Shown here piece by piece: positions 3,708-31,953 of a DNA stretch of 32,000 nucleotides (position 1 is its first letter; each line of letters starts with the position of its first letter). The DNA is from Thermoproteus tenax Kra 1 (GTDB taxonomy: Archaea > Thermoproteota > Thermoprotei > Thermoproteales > Thermoproteaceae): assembly GCF_000253055.1 (NCBI RefSeq), contig NC_016070.1, positions 1,320,001 through 1,352,000 on the forward strand, written 5' to 3'. The notes under the pieces were generated by a model that worked only from the letters and a program-made list of their open reading frames with translations, had not been told where the DNA came from and did no database searches. Made by a program: the position numbers and the translations under genes.

Positions 3708-4556
3708 GTGAAGAGCTATTGGGCGCTGATAAGGGGCGAGCACGGCGTTCTCACCGCCGTATCCTCTGTGGCCTCCTATCTGTTAGCGGGCGGCCGCTCA
3801 GCGCTCTATGCAGGTCTGATCGGGGGCAGCGCCTTTTTGGCCGAGGCAGCTCTATTCGCCCACAACGATCTGGCGAACCAGGCCGAGGACAGAGTCAATA
3901 GGCCAAACGCGCCCTTAGTGACAGGCAAGGTGAGCCAACGCGCTGCTAAGGTATTAGTCGTAAGCAGTGCAATGGCCGGACTGGCGATGGCATCGGCGCT
4001 ATCTGCGCCGGCCCTTTTGATATACATCGCTGCCTTGGCCCTAGGATTCTTTTATAATATTAAGGGCAAGAGAGTGCCGTTGTTGGGCAATCTGATAGTC
4101 GCTTTTCTAACCTCAATGGTGTATTTATACGGTATGGAGGCTGCGTATTCGCAAAATATCTATCTTCTCTTATTGTTTATTGCATCATTTTTAGCAAACA
4201 TTGGCCGTGAATTCGTCAAATCAGCGATAGACTATCACGGCGATCGAGCTGTCGGTATAAGGACCGTTGCCGCGATATTGGGACCTGGGAGGGCCGCCTC
4301 CTTGGGCGCCTATTTCACTCTGGCTTCTGCCTCGGTCGGGCTCTACCTATTTTACGTCCTCGTTAGGGCGGAACTATTAGTTCTAGCAGCGGGGGTGGCC
4401 ATCACCACAGTGCTCCTCTTATACTATTCTATTATCTGCCTAAGGGGATCGTGGAGTAAGTACCGGACAGGCACTCTGTTTGCGTTCGGAGTAACCCTTG
4501 TAACATTGTTGCTACAGGGCATCCTCACTGTTATGATCGGAAGCTTTACCCCTTAG
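3708..4556 (+). CDS. UbiA-family prenyltransferase, probably digeranylgeranylglyceryl phosphate synthase
   Basis: 282 aa and polytopic. Contains the Asp-rich motif HNDLANQAEDRVNRPNAPLVTG, characteristic of UbiA/DGGGP synthases. GTG start. Confidence 0.75.
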   Translation: MKSYWALIRGEHGVLTAVSSVASYLLAGGRSALYAGLIGGSAFLAEAALFAHNDLANQAEDRVNRPNAPLVTGKVSQRAAKVLVVSSAMAGLAMASALSAPALLIYIAALALGFFYNIKGKRVPLLGNLIVAFLTSMVYLYGMEAAYSQNIYLLLLFIASFLANIGREFVKSAIDYHGDRAVGIRTVAAILGPGRAASLGAYFTLASASVGLYLFYVLVRAELLVLAAGVAITTVLLLYYSIICLRGSWSKYRTGTLFAFGVTLVTLLLQGILTVMIGSFTP

Positions 4557-4583: not shown

Positions 4584-4639
4584 TTCCACGGCAGGGCGAC
4601 GAAGAGAGAGTCTAATAGCGCGCTCCATACGGCAGATGG
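4584..4639. repeat. 56-nt copy (55/56 identical) of the core of the 7171-7460 RNA-like locus
   Basis: ttccacggcagGgcgacgaagagagagtctaatagcgcgctccatacggcagatgg matches 7224-7279 with a single g/a difference (4595 vs 7235). Same orientation, 2.6 kb apart. Confidence 0.9.
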
Positions 4640-4662
4640 CTCTCGATGATGGACATAGGATG

Positions 4663-4681
4663 GCCACAATTTTATTGTGGC
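4663..4681. promoter_or_regulatory. Perfect 8-3-8 palindrome overlapping the TATA region of the HAD gene
   Basis: GCCACAAT-TTT-ATTGTGGC. The AT-rich centre lies about 25 nt upstream of the ATG at 4697. Candidate operator or bidirectional promoter. Confidence 0.5.
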
Positions 4682-6814: not shown

Positions 6815-6927
6815 TCGATTTCGACGTTAAAGCGGTGTGATGCCGGGGTAACCCGCCACTCTCATCCGCCCCACACGGGGGTGTCGGTGTGGCGTCTCTA
6901 TCTACTTGCTTGTTTAAAAGCTTTTGT

Positions 6928-7137
6928 TCAAAACTCCACTATGTTTTTGCCCTTCTCTTTCAATTCGGCGAGTATTGCGTCGGCCTTGCTGATGGGTAGC
7001 CTTATGGTATAGAGATATCCAGAGAGGCGCGCCTTGAGTTTGGCCACGTTCTCCTCTGGAAACCTCTTTACCCTTATCTCCTCCGCCTTTTCGGCATACT
7101 TCCTCCATATTTCTACCAAGAACACCTCCTTAGGCAT
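6928..7137 (-). CDS. rpl38e: 50S ribosomal protein eL38
   Basis: 69 aa. ...KARLSGYLYTIRLPISKADAILAELK aligns with eukaryotic RPL38 ([26 protein letters not shown]). The TATA aaataataaaaag lies about 27 nt upstream of the ATG. Confidence 0.85.
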   Translation of the reverse strand: MPKEVFLVEIWRKYAEKAEEIRVKRFPEENVAKLKARLSGYLYTIRLPISKADAILAELKEKGKNIVEF

Positions 7138-7170: not shown

Positions 7171-7460
7171 CGACTGAAGGTCCCGCCATTCAAGTCGGGG
7201 GTGGATTTAAGCTTGCCACATTTTTCCACGGCAGAGCGACGAAGAGAGAGTCTAATAGCGCGCTCCATACGGCAGATGGTCCCCGCCGCGATGCCCGCCC
7301 CAACCGCGGCCTCCCTCGTTAGGGCCGAGTGCCGCCCGGCCCCATGCCCGATAAGCCCGCGCCGGAGGTATCTTGGATGCCGATGAAGGCATGGGCGAGG
7401 AGAAACCCCGCCCTTTAGGGCGGGGAGGCGGAGCGCGGCCATGTGCATATAGGGCGGCAC
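7171..7460 (-). ncRNA. GC-rich structured RNA-like locus A (unknown family; paralog of 31491-31821)
   Basis: About 290 nt at roughly two-thirds G+C between two AT-rich promoters. It contains several perfect 8-9 bp helices (see findings). A TATA-like GATATAGG lies 25-32 nt upstream of 7460 on the minus strand. The only ORF is an implausible Arg/Gly/Pro-rich 111-aa frame. The strand is inferred from G-U pairs in the paralogous hairpin. Confidence 0.5.
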
Positions 7461-7497
7461 GCAAAATATTTTTAAATGGCCTATATCGCGTTGGGTC

Positions 7498-7827
7498 ATG
7501 GAATACGTCTATGCGGCTCTGTTACTACACTATGCAAAACAGGAGATAAGCGAGGAGAATCTGACTAAGGTCCTCCAAGCAGCTGGGCTTCAGCCAGATG
7601 AGGTTAGAATCAAGACGCTAGTCGCCGCCTTGAAGGAGGTTAACATCGATGAGGCCGTAAAAAGCGCCGCCTTCGCTCCAGTTGCAGCCGCCCCAGCTGC
7701 GGGCGCTCCAGCCCAAGCTCAAGCAGCCGGCCAACAACAAGCTGCTGGAGGCGAAAAGAAAGAGGAAGAGGAGAAAAAGGGTCCCAGCGAGGAGGAGATC
7801 GCTGGATCCCTCGCCGCACTGTTCTAA
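7498..7827 (+). CDS. rpl12: Ribosomal stalk protein P1 (aP1/L12e)
   Basis: [26 protein letters not shown]... is followed by an Ala/Pro/Gln hinge and an acidic tail ending [12 protein letters not shown]. The TATA tttttaaat lies about 25 nt upstream. Confidence 0.9.
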
Positions 7828-9237: not shown

Positions 9238-10779
9238 ATGGGTTTCCTTGAATCACTGGCTCTATATCTAATTGCGTGGGCCCTATTGGTGCTCGTAGCC
9301 TACCTCCTCAGAAGAGATCTCGTGAAGGGCCTCGTGGTGATAATGTGGAGCTCTGAGAGGGCGGCCCAGTTCATTACGAAGATATCCAAGAGGCTCAGCT
9401 TCGTGCCGTTGAGGATCTACGTCGCAGTCGCGCTCCTCCTATTCTTGTTGGCTGCATATTCGCCGTATTTCCCCATCCCCGCCGGACTCGGGGTGGCCTA
9501 CATGCCCGGCTTCGCATATCTGTTGGTTGGATCGACATATCAGGCCGCGGCTGCGCTCGCCGGAGGGGCCTCAGTGCAAGAGGCGGCCTTGATAGGCGGA
9601 CAGGCCGGCGCCGTGCCTCTGCTCCCCGGAATAACTATCCCGTGGGATCAATTGCCCTACATAGCGTTGGCAGTAGCGGTAGGCGTGGCTCTCCACGAGT
9701 TTCTGCACGGCTACGCGGCCGTGAGGTTCGGAATCAAGCTTAAGACAGCCGGCGTCTTCTCTGCGTTCTTTGTAGCCAGTGGCGCGTTCGTAGAGCCCGA
9801 CGATAAGGAATTGAAGGAAAGTTCTCTAGTGGCAAAGCTAGCGGTCTTCGCCAGCGGCGTCGCGGCCAACGTGGCGTTAGCTCTGGCCGCCTTGGCTATC
9901 TACCTAATCGGCGTGAACCTAGGCTTGGGTGGCGCCGTGCTCACGAACATCAACGCGCCAACACATCAGTTGGGGCTCGAGCAGGGCGATATTGTAAAGG
10001 CCGTCAACGGCTGCGGCATTTCGACGAAGATAGCAGTGCCGGCTCAGCTCCTCTCTGTGTTGAACAAGCTCGTGGGAAATCCCTATGGGGCTCCGTTGTG
10101 TGATCCAAATCAGACAATAACGCTGATAATACAGAGGGGTTCCAACGAGCTCGTCCAAGACGTGCCGGCTGCCGCGTTGATGAGGGGCGCAGAGATACTC
10201 GGGCTAGTATACAACGGACCTCTCTATAGAGCCGGCGTGAGACCCGGCGATGTTCTGACCGCTATCTACGGGTGCGGCGGCGTATACCGCATATACTCCA
10301 GCGGCCAACTCCTTCAGACTCTCCAGAACATTGTTGAGAGAGATCTCTGCAAGCCTGGAGATGAAATCATAGTTACTGTCGTAAGAAACAATACGGCCAT
10401 CAACTACACGGTGATATTAGGCGTCAATCCATCAAATACATCGAGACCGTTCTTCGGAATATATACTAACGGCTTAGGAGAGATAGGCTTTAATACACAG
10501 TTACTAAATATTTCTCTATTTTCTAATACATTATTTGTAAAAATAATTATGTGGTTCTTTTTAATTAATTTGGGATTAGCCATGATAAATGCTCTCCCCA
10601 TCTATCCGCTTGACGGCGGACTCCTCGTACAGTCGTTGTTGGAGAGGGCGCTGGGAGAGAGGGGGGCGCGCCTGGCCATCTACGTTATTTCCCTTGCCTT
10701 CGCAGCGTTCTTGATATTTGACTCAGCTCTGGGCTTTATGGGCGGCATATATAAAGAGGTCTTCAATCTGCTGAAGTGA
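9238..10779 (+). CDS. Site-2 protease (peptidase M50) with PDZ-like insert
   Basis: The HEFLHGYAA (HExxH) and NALPIYPLDGG (NxxPxxxLDG) motifs lie in hydrophobic helices. Two PDZ-like segments (GDIVKAVNG..., GDVLTAIYG...) sit between them. Confidence 0.85.
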   Translation: MGFLESLALYLIAWALLVLVAYLLRRDLVKGLVVIMWSSERAAQFITKISKRLSFVPLRIYVAVALLLFLLAAYSPYFPIPAGLGVAYMPGFAYLLVGSTYQAAAALAGGASVQEAALIGGQAGAVPLLPGITIPWDQLPYIALAVAVGVALHEFLHGYAAVRFGIKLKTAGVFSAFFVASGAFVEPDDKELKESSLVAKLAVFASGVAANVALALAALAIYLIGVNLGLGGAVLTNINAPTHQLGLEQGDIVKAVNGCGISTKIAVPAQLLSVLNKLVGNPYGAPLCDPNQTITLIIQRGSNELVQDVPAAALMRGAEILGLVYNGPLYRAGVRPGDVLTAIYGCGGVYRIYSSGQLLQTLQNIVERDLCKPGDEIIVTVVRNNTAINYTVILGVNPSNTSRPFFGIYTNGLGEIGFNTQLLNISLFSNTLFVKIIMWFFLINLGLAMINALPIYPLDGGLLVQSLLERALGERGARLAIYVISLAFAAFLIFDSALGFMGGIYKEVFNLLK

Positions 10780-13311: not shown

Positions 13312-13315
13312 TTTC
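13261..13315 (+). ncRNA. C/D box sRNA candidate overlapping the 3' end and stop codon of the 12724-13311 gene
   Basis: The C box AUGAUGA (13264-13270) is perfect. It is followed by a 12-nt guide UAGAACCCGGCC and a degenerate D' GAUC (13283-13286). A degenerate C' AUGAAGU (13289-13295) is followed by a 12-nt guide ACGGCAUCCUAU and a perfect D box CUGA (13308-13311). The flanks GAA/UUU can pair. Box-to-box length is 48 nt. Confidence 0.6.
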
Positions 13316-13570
13316 TCCTCGCGCCCAGCTCCAGCGTTCCTGCCGCGAGACTCTTGAGTTAGCCTACTGCGAGGGGCGCGAGAGCTGTCGCGAGGCAGAG
13401 GGAGTCCGAGGACAAGTCGGTAGATGCTGTAAGGGCTCGCTCACCGAGAATGAGCATAGGCGGTCAGATAGGGCGCCATAAGAGGCCTCATTGAAAACAA
13501 CAATCATCAATATAGATCTACATATATAGGCTAAGATAACAGATTTCAATGTTCTTAGAGCATATCCACA

Positions 13571-29015: not shown

Positions 29016-29206
29016 CCAAGCACTACTTGCTTTACTGCTTGGACAAGCTGATTGAGCATCGAGTCGGTTTGGTTTCTGAAGGACAATATGCTATCTAACG
29101 AACCCTTTATTATTCCGGTCACCGTTAAGGCGAAGGCGACAAATATCCCTATGGCTAAGAACAATAACAGCGTCTCTTCCACAAATATAGAGCCTCTTCT
29201 CTTCAT
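29012..29206 (-). CDS. Small protein with a class III (type IV pilin-like) signal peptide
   Basis: 64 aa. MKRRG/SIFVEETLLLFLAIGIFVAFAL has a basic N-terminus, Gly, then a hydrophobic helix, as in archaeal prepilin/archaellin-like precursors. Confidence 0.45.
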   Translation of the reverse strand: MKRRGSIFVEETLLLFLAIGIFVAFALTVTGIIKGSLDSILSFRNQTDSMLNQLVQAVKQVVLG

Positions 29207-29306
29207 GTCTAATTATTGAAAGATTAAATACACCTTATTAATGAGGGGTGCGCCGAGAGATCGATGAATCAATTGCTTAATTTATGCGGTTTCACTCGCG
29301 TGACCC

Positions 29307-29538
29307 GGGCACCTCCTCCATCTGCTCGCAGGCGGGGACTGGTGAGGGGCTTGCCCTTAAGTCGCTTCTCTGCCTCTACTGATACAGATGGAGGCGGGGG
29401 GGGGGGGGACATAGCCGCCGTGATAAACAACGAAAGGAGGGTGCCGGAGGTGCTCGCGGAGGGCCGCGCGCACTCCGGCCCCAGGGCCTCGCGCCCAAGG
29501 TATTGTGCCGATTAGGGCGCAAGCAAGGAGGAGGTCCC
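29307..29538 (+). ncRNA. GC-rich structured RNA-like locus D (unknown family)
   Basis: A 12-bp terminal helix (29307-29319 / 29527-29538, one bulged C) encloses four hairpins plus an inner 5-bp closing helix. One hairpin is a 15-bp stem (29443-29479). The TATA cttaatttatg (29276-29286) is centred about 26 nt upstream of 29307. A G-U pair in the AGGGG-CUUG-CCCUU hairpin favours the plus strand. Confidence 0.45.
29396..29408. repeat. G13 homopolymer tract
   Basis: Thirteen consecutive G residues were counted directly, inside locus D. Confidence 0.95.
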
Positions 29539-29589
29539 AGAGCGCGATGCCGGTAGTAATCGACTAGGGATAGATGTTTAATGTGGCCT

Positions 29590-31437
29590 CTATAGTTGTT
29601 TATACGTCGGTCTCTCCGATAATAATCTCGGCATATATAACGGCCTCTTGGGATAGCCTTTGATCTCGCTTTTAATAAGCGATATCAGCTCTTGATGCGT
29701 CATCTGACGCTGCGTGCCGCCTCTTATCCTCACCGTGAGAGTCTTAGATTCGACCTCCTTATGCCCTATGACGACAATATACGGTATCCATTCCCTTTCG
29801 GCGTCGCGTATCCTCCTTGAAAGCGTCTCGTTTCTATCGTCGATATCCGCTCTGATATCCGCCCCTTCGAGCTCGTCGGCAAGCTTAAGCGCCTCCTCCA
29901 GTTGCTCTCTATTGATCGGAATTATTCTTACTTGAACGGGCGAGATCCAAGTCGGAAGCCGCGGCACCTGTCCCCTTTTCTCCATGAGGGCTGCTGTATC
30001 AAACAACGCAAAGAGGTATCTCTCAACGCTGCCCAATATGGCCGTATGGATTATTACAGGATATCTTATCTTATTTTCATCGTCTATATATTTGATATTG
30101 AACCTCATCGCGTTGCCGACATCTATCTGGAAGGTCGCAATCTCCCTCGGCCGTCCCAACTCGTCTATTATGTGGAACTCCACGTTGAGAACCCAGTAGT
30201 ACTTCTGCTCTGGCAGTATCCTCAGCAATATTGGCTTGCCCTCGCGCTTGGCCAACTCAATTAGATAGTCCTTGTATCCCCTATAGAACTCGGCTGTTAC
30301 GTTATATAATGAGACGTAATCTCGTCCAATTTTTCTTATTTCTTCAAATATTTTATTATGTAACTTATAGGTTACCTCAATTGCTTGTTTTAAATCTTTT
30401 GTGAAAATATGAAGGTCTGGCATATAAAATCTCCTTAGTCTAAACAGGAGAACAGTTTCGCCGGGTTGTTCGTATCGGTACGAGTCCGCCACTTCCAACA
30501 TTCCGAAAGGCAGATTCCTGTAGCTCACGACCCAGTCTCTCACCATGGCAAACTGTTGGAAACATGCGGCATAGCGGAGTATCGATTCAGTGTCTGCTTC
30601 TACTATGTACAGACGTTCCCCGAATAGTTTAGCATGGGTCTCAATGGGTCTCTCGCTCAGCTTGAACATATTAGTGCCTCTTATCTTGAATATGGGTATT
30701 CCGAGAGACTTCGCGACTTGGTAGGCGTAGTCCTCCACCAGTTCCATCATTATTGTGGCATCAGGCCCATATCTCATGTGGCCCACATCGGACATAGGTT
30801 CCCACTCGAAGCCAAAACGTTTTACATACTCTATGTATTTTGGCTCGCCGCCTGGCAACTCCCTTTTGAATACCTCCTTATCTACCAGAGCTTTTAGATC
30901 GGGGTATTTATCCAACGGATAGTCGGCTGGATTGTACTCTTCACCCTCAGGCGACAGAATAAGATAGATATCAGGAGCTGCGCGCTCGGCTTGAGCTTGC
31001 GGCCTTCCGCTGAAAAGCTCCGGCTTGTACGAGTAAGATCTGCTGAGCTCAGAAAGAGGATGCCCTATACATTTTATTTCAAATGATTTATAATATCCAA
31101 ATGGAGCTTTTAACACTTTAAATTGATTAAATCCATTTAATATATCGAATAACTTATTCAATATTTCTCTTGAGGTATAGGGCTTTGCTAAATTGGGCGA
31201 TAGATGGGCGTATGGATATATTACTATTGTTTGAGCGTCCACCTTCTTAGCAACCTCAACAATATCTCTTGAGATAGCCGCAAGATACGCCTCGTCGGGC
31301 TTATCGCCCTCCTCAACAGTAATAAACGCAACGAGGGCATTATCGGCATTGCCTGAGACAGGGTCATCCCTGATATCTAACGCCGGCTCCTTTGGCTCCC
31401 ACCTAAAATATTGGGCATGTATCAGGAGCACGCGCAT
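29590..31437 (-). CDS. thrS: Threonyl-tRNA synthetase, full-length archaeal form with N-terminal editing domain
   Basis: Class II core motifs and a C-terminal anticodon-binding domain are present. The ORF-track start at 31566 runs through the GC-rich upstream block. Met44 (31437, MRVLLIHAQYFRWEPKEP) is the typical archaeal ThrRS start and lies about 28 nt from the TATA at 31460-31470. Confidence 0.9.
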   Translation of the reverse strand: MRVLLIHAQYFRWEPKEPALDIRDDPVSGNADNALVAFITVEEGDKPDEAYLAAISRDIVEVAKKVDAQTIVIYPYAHLSPNLAKPYTSREILNKLFDILNGFNQFKVLKAPFGYYKSFEIKCIGHPLSELSRSYSYKPELFSGRPQAQAERAAPDIYLILSPEGEEYNPADYPLDKYPDLKALVDKEVFKRELPGGEPKYIEYVKRFGFEWEPMSDVGHMRYGPDATIMMELVEDYAYQVAKSLGIPIFKIRGTNMFKLSERPIETHAKLFGERLYIVEADTESILRYAACFQQFAMVRDWVVSYRNLPFGMLEVADSYRYEQPGETVLLFRLRRFYMPDLHIFTKDLKQAIEVTYKLHNKIFEEIRKIGRDYVSLYNVTAEFYRGYKDYLIELAKREGKPILLRILPEQKYYWVLNVEFHIIDELGRPREIATFQIDVGNAMRFNIKYIDDENKIRYPVIIHTAILGSVERYLFALFDTAALMEKRGQVPRLPTWISPVQVRIIPINREQLEEALKLADELEGADIRADIDDRNETLSRRIRDAEREWIPYIVVIGHKEVESKTLTVRIRGGTQRQMTHQELISLIKSEIKGYPKRPLYMPRLLSERPTYKQL

Positions 31438-31490
31438 TAGGTGATTCCTCGCTCCCTCGTATATAATTTTGGCCCCTTGTGGCGCCCGGC

Positions 31491-31821
31491 CTCCGTGTGG
31501 GCGGCCCCAGGTGTACTCGGAGCGGGGCCCAAGCACGCCGAGGATGCCAAGAGAGGTGGTGAACATCCAGCCGCCGTAGATTTCGTATGAACCTCTATCC
31601 GCTCCACTGTGGGAGTCTCACCGGTTGCCCTCTCCGGGGCTGATGGGAGAGACCACGACTGGATGCCGCGGCGAAGCGGACATCGCGGCGGGGCACCCCA
31701 GCTGACCCCATCCCATTGTGTGAGAAATAAACTATCATCGACTCTTTCTTCATCGCTATGCCATAGAAGATGTGGCTTGCTTAAAATCCATCCCCGATTT
31801 GAAGGGCGAGGCTTTCGGTTG
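31491..31821 (+). ncRNA. GC-rich structured RNA-like locus B (paralog of locus A)
   Basis: The TATA tatataatttt (31460-31470) is centred about 26 nt upstream. 31740-31821 aligns with the reverse complement of 7171-7254 at about 78% identity. 31665-31697 aligns with the reverse complement of 7278-7310. The terminal hairpin 31795-31821 is maintained by G-U pairs only on this strand. Confidence 0.45.
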
Positions 31822-31953
31822 CAAGTTCACATCCAACGATCACTCGCCTAATGATAATATGGGCTGATGCCCTAATTCTCCTCAATACGACAAGTATACA
31901 ATCCTATCTTAAGTAGAAAGCTTTTATACTGGAGCGATTTGCCCTCTCAGCAA

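Follow-up and report, generated by a model that had tools for sequence, protein, structure and literature searches.

The RNA biology of Thermoproteus tenax is already known as unusual, its SRP RNA being a permuted, circularised molecule of ~300 nt, an orthologue of which is found in T. uzoniensis (Plagens et al. 2015, PMC4731332). The RNase P RNA of T. tenax is of type T, scores in or near the 124-167 bits spanned by the training set of its dedicated model, and occurs once per genome. The T. tenax genome paper describes five transposase ORFs or fragments, rare IS elements and no short repeat family, and a small-RNA-seq data set for the organism exists as GEO GSE72127. In the literature on T. 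tenax repeats, MITEs and sRNAs no description was found of the elements reported here, and their sequences were absent from the supplements of the T. tenax C/D sRNA catalogue.

The window analysed is a stretch of 32,000 nucleotides of T. tenax Kra 1 (contig NC_016070.1, positions 1,320,001 to 1,352,000), in which two paralogous GC-rich loci, A and B, were located. Locus B is a block of about 415 nt at 31475..31890 on the plus strand (bounds +/-10 nt). It is flanked on one side by thrS, on the minus strand at 29590-31437 with its true start (MRVLLIH) at 31437, and on the other by the AdoMet decarboxylase gene speH, which starts at 31944 on the plus strand and was identified via synteny. Locus A, a block of about 250-280 nt at 7171..7452 on the minus strand, lies between the TATA boxes of rpl38e and rpP1; GC-rich spacer of ancestral origin may account for its first ~30 nt. 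The product of rpl38e (69 aa, 6928-7137, minus strand) is 100% identical to T. tenax ribosomal protein L38e, while rpP1 (7498-7827, plus strand) is the gene for acidic ribosomal protein P1.

The similarity on which the original prediction was built is sound. Comparison of the loci with the window by BLASTN matched 31740-31819 (plus) to 7173-7252 (minus) with 79% identity over 81 nt (E = 1.6e-12). In an alignment of the whole 3' module (31740..31821, plus, in B; 7171..7254, minus, in A) with two compensating 1-nt indels placed by hand, 69 of 88 columns were identical, the remainder being 14 transitions and 5 transversions. The module, of ~85 nt, is made up of a CU-rich stretch, hairpin H1 (31755-31780 in B, 7211-7237 in A), the sequence UUAAAUCCAYCCCC (UUAAAAUCCAUCCCC in B) and the terminal hairpin H2 (31795-31821 in B, 7171-7197 in A). 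The terminal hairpin was found as predicted, all eight pairs being Watson-Crick in locus A and all eight being kept in locus B, three of them as G.U.

A second shared part, likewise anticipated, is a hairpin block of the form GCCGCGG-N-CATCGCGGCGGGG, common to 7281-7310 (minus) and 31665-31697 (plus); the locus B version reads GCCGCGG-N13-CGCGGCGGGG and matched 7281-7314 at 82% over 34 nt (BLASTN, E = 0.003). The window contains CATCGCGGCGGGG at just two places, one per locus, and when the gapped pattern of the block was used in a scan it was found again in T. tenax-like loci only. Upstream of these parts the two bodies showed no homology, with a local alignment score of 16 against a shuffle mean of 16.7. 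The earlier impression that the bodies are not clearly alignable is therefore accurate, as is the layout proposed from it, a common 3' module preceded by variable, unrelated 5' domains. In locus B the module is followed by a 69-nt tail (31822..31890, plus), to which nothing corresponds in locus A or in the relatives described below.

A third, partial copy (copy C), which was not among the loci originally described, was identified at 4584..4639 on the minus strand. It is identical to 7224-7279 at 55 of 56 positions (98%), is oriented as locus A and lies 2.6 kb from it, in the spacer between the UbiA and hydrolase genes. Its content is the linker and the first 29 nt of the module, stopping in the loop of H1, and it would be a dead remnant, 56 nt long, of an A-type copy. 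In the T. tenax DNA examined, about 41 kb, the count is thus two full copies plus a fragment.

Homologues of L38e and ThrRS led to the orthologous regions in four further Thermoproteus lineages, namely T. uzoniensis, an AZ2-like lineage and two uncultured ones. Gene order was conserved among them and spacer lengths differed. The rpP1-rpl38e spacer measures 79, 100 and 119 nt in the relatives (L001, L003, L005-L010) and 360 nt in T. tenax; the speH-thrS spacer measures 104-108 nt (L019, which is T. uzoniensis, L020 and L021) as compared with about 506-514 nt; and the UbiA-hydrolase spacer 2-16 nt as compared with 143 nt. Locus B is absent from the other Thermoproteus speH-thrS spacers, homology with which picks up again near 31892, and locus A is likewise confined to T. 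tenax. Since the spacers are so much shorter in the other lineages, A, B and the fragment are T. tenax-specific insertions, and by parsimony all three copies are gains of the T. tenax lineage.

Searches of wider collections gave the same picture. No trace of the module was detected in about 300 kb of the relatives' DNA by BLAST or with an nhmmer profile of the module, the matches of which in the Thermoproteus DNA examined were confined to loci A and B, copy C and the versions of B in the strain assemblies. A degenerate pattern of the module gave five matches in species-representative genomes, all in unrelated bacteria and attributable to pattern length only. There were four matches in JGI metagenomes, in unrelated organisms, and 0 and 9 in two scans of IMG/VR viral sequences, again reflecting pattern length only, these collections evidently being without the T. 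tenax genome; BLAST of phage and plasmid collections returned nothing relevant to the loci. A and B do not belong to a conserved RNA gene family, all copies being specific to T. tenax and absent from four other Thermoproteus lineages.

Two further GC-rich expansions specific to T. tenax were noted in the window, at 29207-29589 and 13312-13500. A permissive Rfam scan of 29150-29650 gave chance-level matches only.

Recent insertions and a truncated fragment are typical of RNA genes and selfish repeats alike, and the main rival to an RNA family is a non-autonomous selfish repeat that spread into promoter-proximal spacers of the T. tenax lineage. The 3' module would then be recognised by a mobilising machinery, the 5' body would be variable cargo, and any structure would serve the propagation of the element itself, as ssDNA or RNA, rather than the host. 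This reading accounts equally well for three independent lineage-specific insertions within 32 kb, at spacers which are tiny in relatives, and for a 98%-identical fragment so close to locus A. The absence of the element from the searched genomes, metagenomes and viral sequences, the modular build with a shared end and unrelated bodies, and the terminal hairpin H2 lying flush with the insertion boundary in locus A also agree with it. The lack of element ends is less well explained. The longest TIR run was 4-5 nt, equal to the shuffle mean, no TSD was found in the flanks at any plausible boundary, and the left ends of A and B have nothing in common, so that a classical MITE was rejected. Moreover, the module of locus B is not at the end of its insertion, the tail intervening; transposases and IS elements are few according to the genome paper; and two full copies and one fragment are a small yield for about 41 kb. 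A selfish repeat is regarded as the strongest rival, one which may be right and is on balance rather unlikely.

The structure of the loci was evaluated by folding and by strain comparison. The description of the bodies as highly structured found no support in single-sequence folding, which was no better than for shuffled sequences (z = 0.0 for B, -0.55 for A), and for structure in locus B the support comes from comparative data only. A second strain was available in run assemblies L022 and L023, the ThrRS of which is 100% identical to that of the window. Over 12.4 kb they differed from the window at 62 positions (0.5%), with a divergence of 0.93% at third codon positions and 0.40% in coding DNA. 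The body of locus B (31476-31745, about 270 nt) carried seven substitutions and three single-base indels relative to strain L022, which is as fast as synonymous (neutral) change or faster. Between the strains no difference was seen in the 204 nt running from the module to speH, the module itself included, a result which alone is not significant.

Four of the seven body substitutions form two pairs of partners. In L022, 31585 G>A and 31739 C>T together convert a G-C into an A-U pair in long-range helix 1, the strands of which are at 31583..31590 (UCG-U-AUGA) and 31735..31741 (UCAU-CGA). Similarly, 31614 A>G and 31711 T>C convert an A-U into a G-C pair in long-range helix 2, formed by 31602..31614 (CUCCAC-U-GUGGGA) and 31711..31724 (UCCCAU-U-GUG-U-GAG). 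A fifth substitution, 31652 A>G, replaces a U-A by a U.G pair, so that pairing is kept, in a local stem (GUCUC / GAGAC) around a small hairpin at 31615..31653. The remaining two, at 31545 and 31642, break weakly predicted pairs of the single-sequence minimum free energy (MFE) fold. All of these helices were placed on the plus strand, as was a predicted 5' irregular hairpin domain at 31480..31531, part of the consensus fold and invariant between the strains. The 3' strand of helix 1 overlaps the shared module by the first two bases of the latter.

Both compensated pairs were already present in the MFE fold of the window sequence alone, with five fold boundaries and on both strands, at pair probabilities of 0.61-0.98. 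When seven substitutions were placed at random on the fixed structure, the probability of at least two compensated partner pairs was 1.3e-4. RNAalifold on locus B gave 104 pairs, of which two had changes on both sides and one on a single side, all three keeping their pairing; no pair was broken. Compensatory change of the kind expected of a structured ncRNA was accordingly found in locus B, with two double changes and one wobble-retaining change among the seven substitutions. Because the body changes at or above the neutral rate while its pairs are kept, the sequence appears free to change and the pairing does not. These observations, from one strain comparison at one locus, are good evidence that selection acts on a single-stranded nucleic-acid structure in locus B, and to this extent the proposal of a constrained secondary structure was upheld, on two long-range compensatory doubles rather than on folding energy. 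Between loci A and B the module stems showed one-sided (G.U) changes; two of seven differing pairs were broken and none was doubly compensated. Pairing of the body with the linker preceding the module is a layout common to A and B in the predicted folds, the predicted closing helix of A joining 7430-7437 to 7259-7266.

The same data bear on two of the rivals. Compensation across strands 97 and 154 nt apart would be unexpected for the ends of a DNA transposon, and a selfish repeat explains it less well. The body rate and the folding z-scores of about 0, taken by themselves, are in keeping with functionless GC-rich filler, grown by ectopic or templated repair and local duplication. Likeness among A, B and C would then be a neutral remnant of duplication, copy C resembling a templated patch, and the G.U pattern would be due to chance and transition-biased mutation. 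Bounded by the same pair of TATA boxes, the GC-rich spacer measures 7, 31, 52 and about 290 nt among Thermoproteus lineages, and this, like the two other expansions, would suit such growth. The statistics of compensation disfavour neutral filler DNA, both doubles being in helices predicted beforehand (P about 1.3e-4). The wobble-compatibility of all five module-stem transitions on one strand and the invariance of the 3' 204 nt between strains, the latter not significant by itself, also tell against filler, which is judged unlikely.

Strand was examined in both module hairpins. On the proposed strand H1 and H2 together formed 18 of 18 pairs in A and 16 of 18 in B, compared with 15 and 12 of 18 on the complement. 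Five of five transitions in the module stems were wobble-compatible on the proposed strand; the broken pairs in B are due to two transversions. The pair affected by 31652 A>G had a probability of 0.994 on the plus strand versus 0.08 on the minus strand, and the change is tolerated on the plus strand only. In addition the MFE was lower on the proposed strand, the margin being 7 kcal/mol in A and 4 kcal/mol in B. The double compensations say nothing about strand. Taken together, these data lend moderate support to the orientation first proposed from the hairpin, with B read from the plus and A from the minus strand.

Promoter sequences near the loci were reconsidered in the light of the relatives. 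The TATA boxes previously reported upstream of both bodies do exist, and are the promoters of the divergent neighbours thrS (locus B) and rpP1 (locus A) rather than of the elements. The BRE/TATA of thrS (GGCCAAAATTATATAC on the minus strand) is at 31460..31472, with its A-rich BRE on the thrS side and directed towards thrS; it occupies the same place in relatives without locus B. The rpP1 TATA (AAAATATTTTTAAAT, 7463..7477, plus) is conserved in relatives without locus A, and in these relatives both boxes are at the same distance from their genes. The elements sit between two divergent core promoters, both of which were left intact. Neither a dedicated BRE/TATA in the sense orientation of A or B nor an oligo-T terminator after the module was found.

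In their sense orientations locus A points into rpl38e, locus B into speH, and copy C into the 3' end of a convergent gene. The first two directions, together with the adjoining core promoters, raise the possibility of a cis-acting RNA of the neighbouring genes, either a structured leader or an upstream antisense RNA, for speH and rpl38e (sense) or for thrS and rpP1 (antisense). Each flanking gene has its own TATA at leaderless distance, downstream of the element, as in the relatives, and a cis-regulatory leader is disfavoured because the proximal promoters of all four flanking genes are intact. The flanking genes are unrelated in function, the orientation of copy C does not fit, and the relatives do without the elements; on these grounds cis-regulation is considered quite improbable.

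Loci A and B are non-coding. Differences between the A and B modules were distributed 9/7/3 by column modulo 3, most frames contain stops, and translations of the loci, including concatenated spurious ORFs, had no match in the protein database. With neither codon periodicity, nor a consistently open frame, nor a protein match, the earlier conclusion that conservation is not at the protein level stands.

Known RNA classes were sought with Rfam models and dedicated tools. The sole match in the window at gathering score was the Pyrobaculum H/ACA sRNA PyrR205, at 6838-6896 on the minus strand and outside the loci, and no other H/ACA-like sRNA of the Pyrobaculum type was found. At E <= 10 both loci gave chance-level matches only, with no SRP RNA, RNase P RNA, tRNA, riboswitch or ribozyme among them. 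A match to HgcC (RF00062) covered part of locus A on the opposite strand (24.4 bits, E = 0.0026, against a gathering score of 50) and was driven by a near-palindromic hairpin, CCCCGCCCTTTAGGGCGGGG. Box C/D sRNAs were rejected, no RUGAUGA motif (at most one mismatch) being followed by CUGA 30-85 nt downstream on either strand of A, B or C. Processing at bulge-helix-bulge (BHB) motifs, suggested earlier as a check, was assessed by requiring 3-nt bulges on opposite strands, 4 bp apart, formed by the two ends. One relaxed match was found in B (plus) and none in A (minus), where shuffled sequences give 0.7-2.3, which is chance level and gives no sign of circularisation.

T. tenax is known for its annotation-evading permuted SRP RNA and for heavily interrupted tRNA genes, and the loci could on that account be suspected of being an overlooked housekeeping RNA, whether a permuted SRP RNA, an RNase P RNA or a tRNA that is split or rich in introns. 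The T. tenax SRP RNA has been mapped between ppdK (TTX_0683) and ppa (TTX_0684), and no SRP model matched at E <= 10. The type-T model would detect the T. tenax RNase P RNA and found none in the window, and a genome contains one copy. ARAGORN reported no tRNA in the window and Rfam none at E <= 10, a combination that multi-intron tRNAs could evade. In addition, orthologues of such RNAs would be expected in T. uzoniensis, where the known SRP RNA has one and A and B are without counterpart. Models and literature together exclude the simple resolution of locus B as SRP or RNase P RNA, and a housekeeping RNA of any of these kinds is barely conceivable.

The reading preferred here, with a probability of about 0.5, is that A and B are paralogous structured ncRNAs specific to the T. 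tenax lineage, of roughly 250-350 nt and with a shared 3' module. Each RNA would consist of a GC-rich, multi-helix, fast-drifting 5' body, the helices of which are preserved by compensatory change, and long-range helices would join this body to the linker just 5' of the conserved 3' part, namely the GC hairpin block and the module. Transcription would proceed on the strand originally proposed, probably as read-out from the divergent promoters alongside. The slow-evolving module may serve as a functional platform shared by the family, on which proteins bind, processing occurs or targets pair, and the body as a stabilising scaffold which drifts freely while its helices hold. A bolder variant, regarded as doubtful, is a modular archaeal RNA element of a kind not described before, in which the 3' module is combined with interchangeable, rapidly co-evolving GC-rich scaffolds. 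Such an element would colonise the narrow divergent-promoter spacers of a single lineage, possibly via an RNA or single-stranded intermediate, and would be transcribed by hitch-hiking on the promoters there; the expansions at 29207-29589 and 13312-13500 could then be more diverged members.

If the preferred reading of paralogous structured ncRNAs is true, T. tenax has a species-restricted family of large structured ncRNAs which arose or spread after the split from T. uzoniensis. It would also afford a rare view of the birth and duplication of a structured RNA family, the fold of which is kept amid faster-than-synonymous change. Should the loci instead be selfish repeats, they would be the first short repeat family in a genome reported as nearly free of mobile elements. 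Nothing similar is present in Rfam or in the literature searched, and A and B probably represent a structured RNA not described before; within the reach of these data, they are a family confined to one species.

Among described systems, the permuted SRP RNA of T. tenax resembles A and B in being GC-rich, highly base-paired, intergenic, of the same organism, and missed by annotation and covariance models. It differs from them in its ppdK-ppa locus, its SRP54/SRP19 motifs, its own TATA lying 26 nt upstream of where transcription starts, and the BHB at its ends. The Hgc RNAs, such as HgcC, are like A and B in being intergenic, GC-rich relative to the genome, structured, orphan and of hyperthermophilic origin, and differ in that they are conserved across genera whereas A and B are restricted to a single species. 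MITEs and other small non-autonomous repeats, including palindrome-associated ones derived from IS200/IS605, share with A, B and C that they are short, non-coding, multi-copy, lineage-specific and intergenic, form hairpins and leave partial fragments. Unlike MITEs, A and B have no TIR, TSD or shared left end and a very low copy number in the DNA examined. Of the subterminal hairpins at both ends that an IS200/IS605-derived element or a TnpB omega-RNA would have, a right-end one flush with the boundary is found in A only, and the left ends are unrelated; long-range compensatory substitutions, as in locus B, are not a known property of MITE-type elements. Telomerase RNA, RNase MRP RNA and Y RNAs exist as single copies and are ancient, and their protein partners have been identified. 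Their sequences drift fast, their helices are kept by compensation, and a short module is conserved. By analogy, A and B may be likened to these RNAs in joining a drifting scaffold to a conserved module.

A third, partial member of this T. tenax-specific family of GC-rich structured-RNA-like insertions, copy C, was found at 4584-4639 (minus-strand sense), where it is identical to 7224-7279 of locus A at 55 of 56 positions and is cut off at both ends. It lies in the UbiA-hydrolase spacer, which is 2-16 nt long in relatives. The same T. tenax-specific spacer carries a perfect palindrome, GGCCACAATTTTATTGTGGC (4658-4677), whose centre is the HAD-hydrolase TATA box; it therefore seems that even the promoter of this gene was replaced in the T. 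tenax lineage.

A further T. tenax-specific, GC-rich expanded spacer was identified at 29207-29589, bounded by a gene of 64 aa and the thrS stop codon, and measures 383 nt versus approximately 32 nt in relatives. Folding is much better on the plus strand, at -154 to -161 kcal/mol, than on the minus strand, at -129 to -134 kcal/mol. A G13 run in this spacer is four G shorter in the second strain, and one strain difference converts a predicted U.G pair to C-G. The spacer gave no match to Rfam. It may represent an additional structured RNA candidate. Gapped local alignment of the locus A body (7321-7390, minus strand) with 29460-29518 (minus strand) gave a score of 29, above all 300 shuffles. The alignment consists of GC-rich hairpin words and uses the worse-folding strand of the spacer; a distant relationship between the two is possible.

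At the other end of thrS, the open reading frame extends 129 nt further into locus B (31438-31566, minus strand; P0032), and ThrRS is consequently called as a protein of 658 aa in the run assemblies. Based upon the length of ThrRS in relatives (612-613 aa) and the conserved TATA box, which a thrS start at 31437 fits, the extra 43 aa at the N terminus are an annotation artefact.

The DUF4443-citrate synthase spacer of relatives contains a sequence, GTGATGAAATAACCCGGACGGAGTTGATGAAGTTCGGCATCCTATCTGA, that clearly resembles a C/D box sRNA (orthologous regions L001 of T. uzoniensis, 3960-4100; L003, 4103-4245; and L005, 3640-3760). In T. tenax (13312-13500) its place is taken by a longer GC-rich stretch in which the boxes are degenerate at best.

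Across Thermoproteus lineages, the TATA boxes of rpP1 and rpl38e are separated by a GC-rich spacer of 7, 31 or 52 nt (rpP1-rpl38e spacers at 9882-10000 in L005-L010, 9901-10000 in L001 and 9922-10000 in L003), and the T. uzoniensis spacer includes a segment, CGGCCTCCCC, similar to the initial 30 nt or so of locus A. Taken together, the variable length and this likeness suggest that GC-rich DNA may have expanded repeatedly in the TATA-to-TATA spacer. Immediately 3' of rpl38e, the Pyrobaculum-type H/ACA sRNA PyrR205 was identified at 6838-6896 (minus strand) with 42.8 bits, above the gathering threshold, and its position is kept in T. uzoniensis (L001, about 10240-10300).
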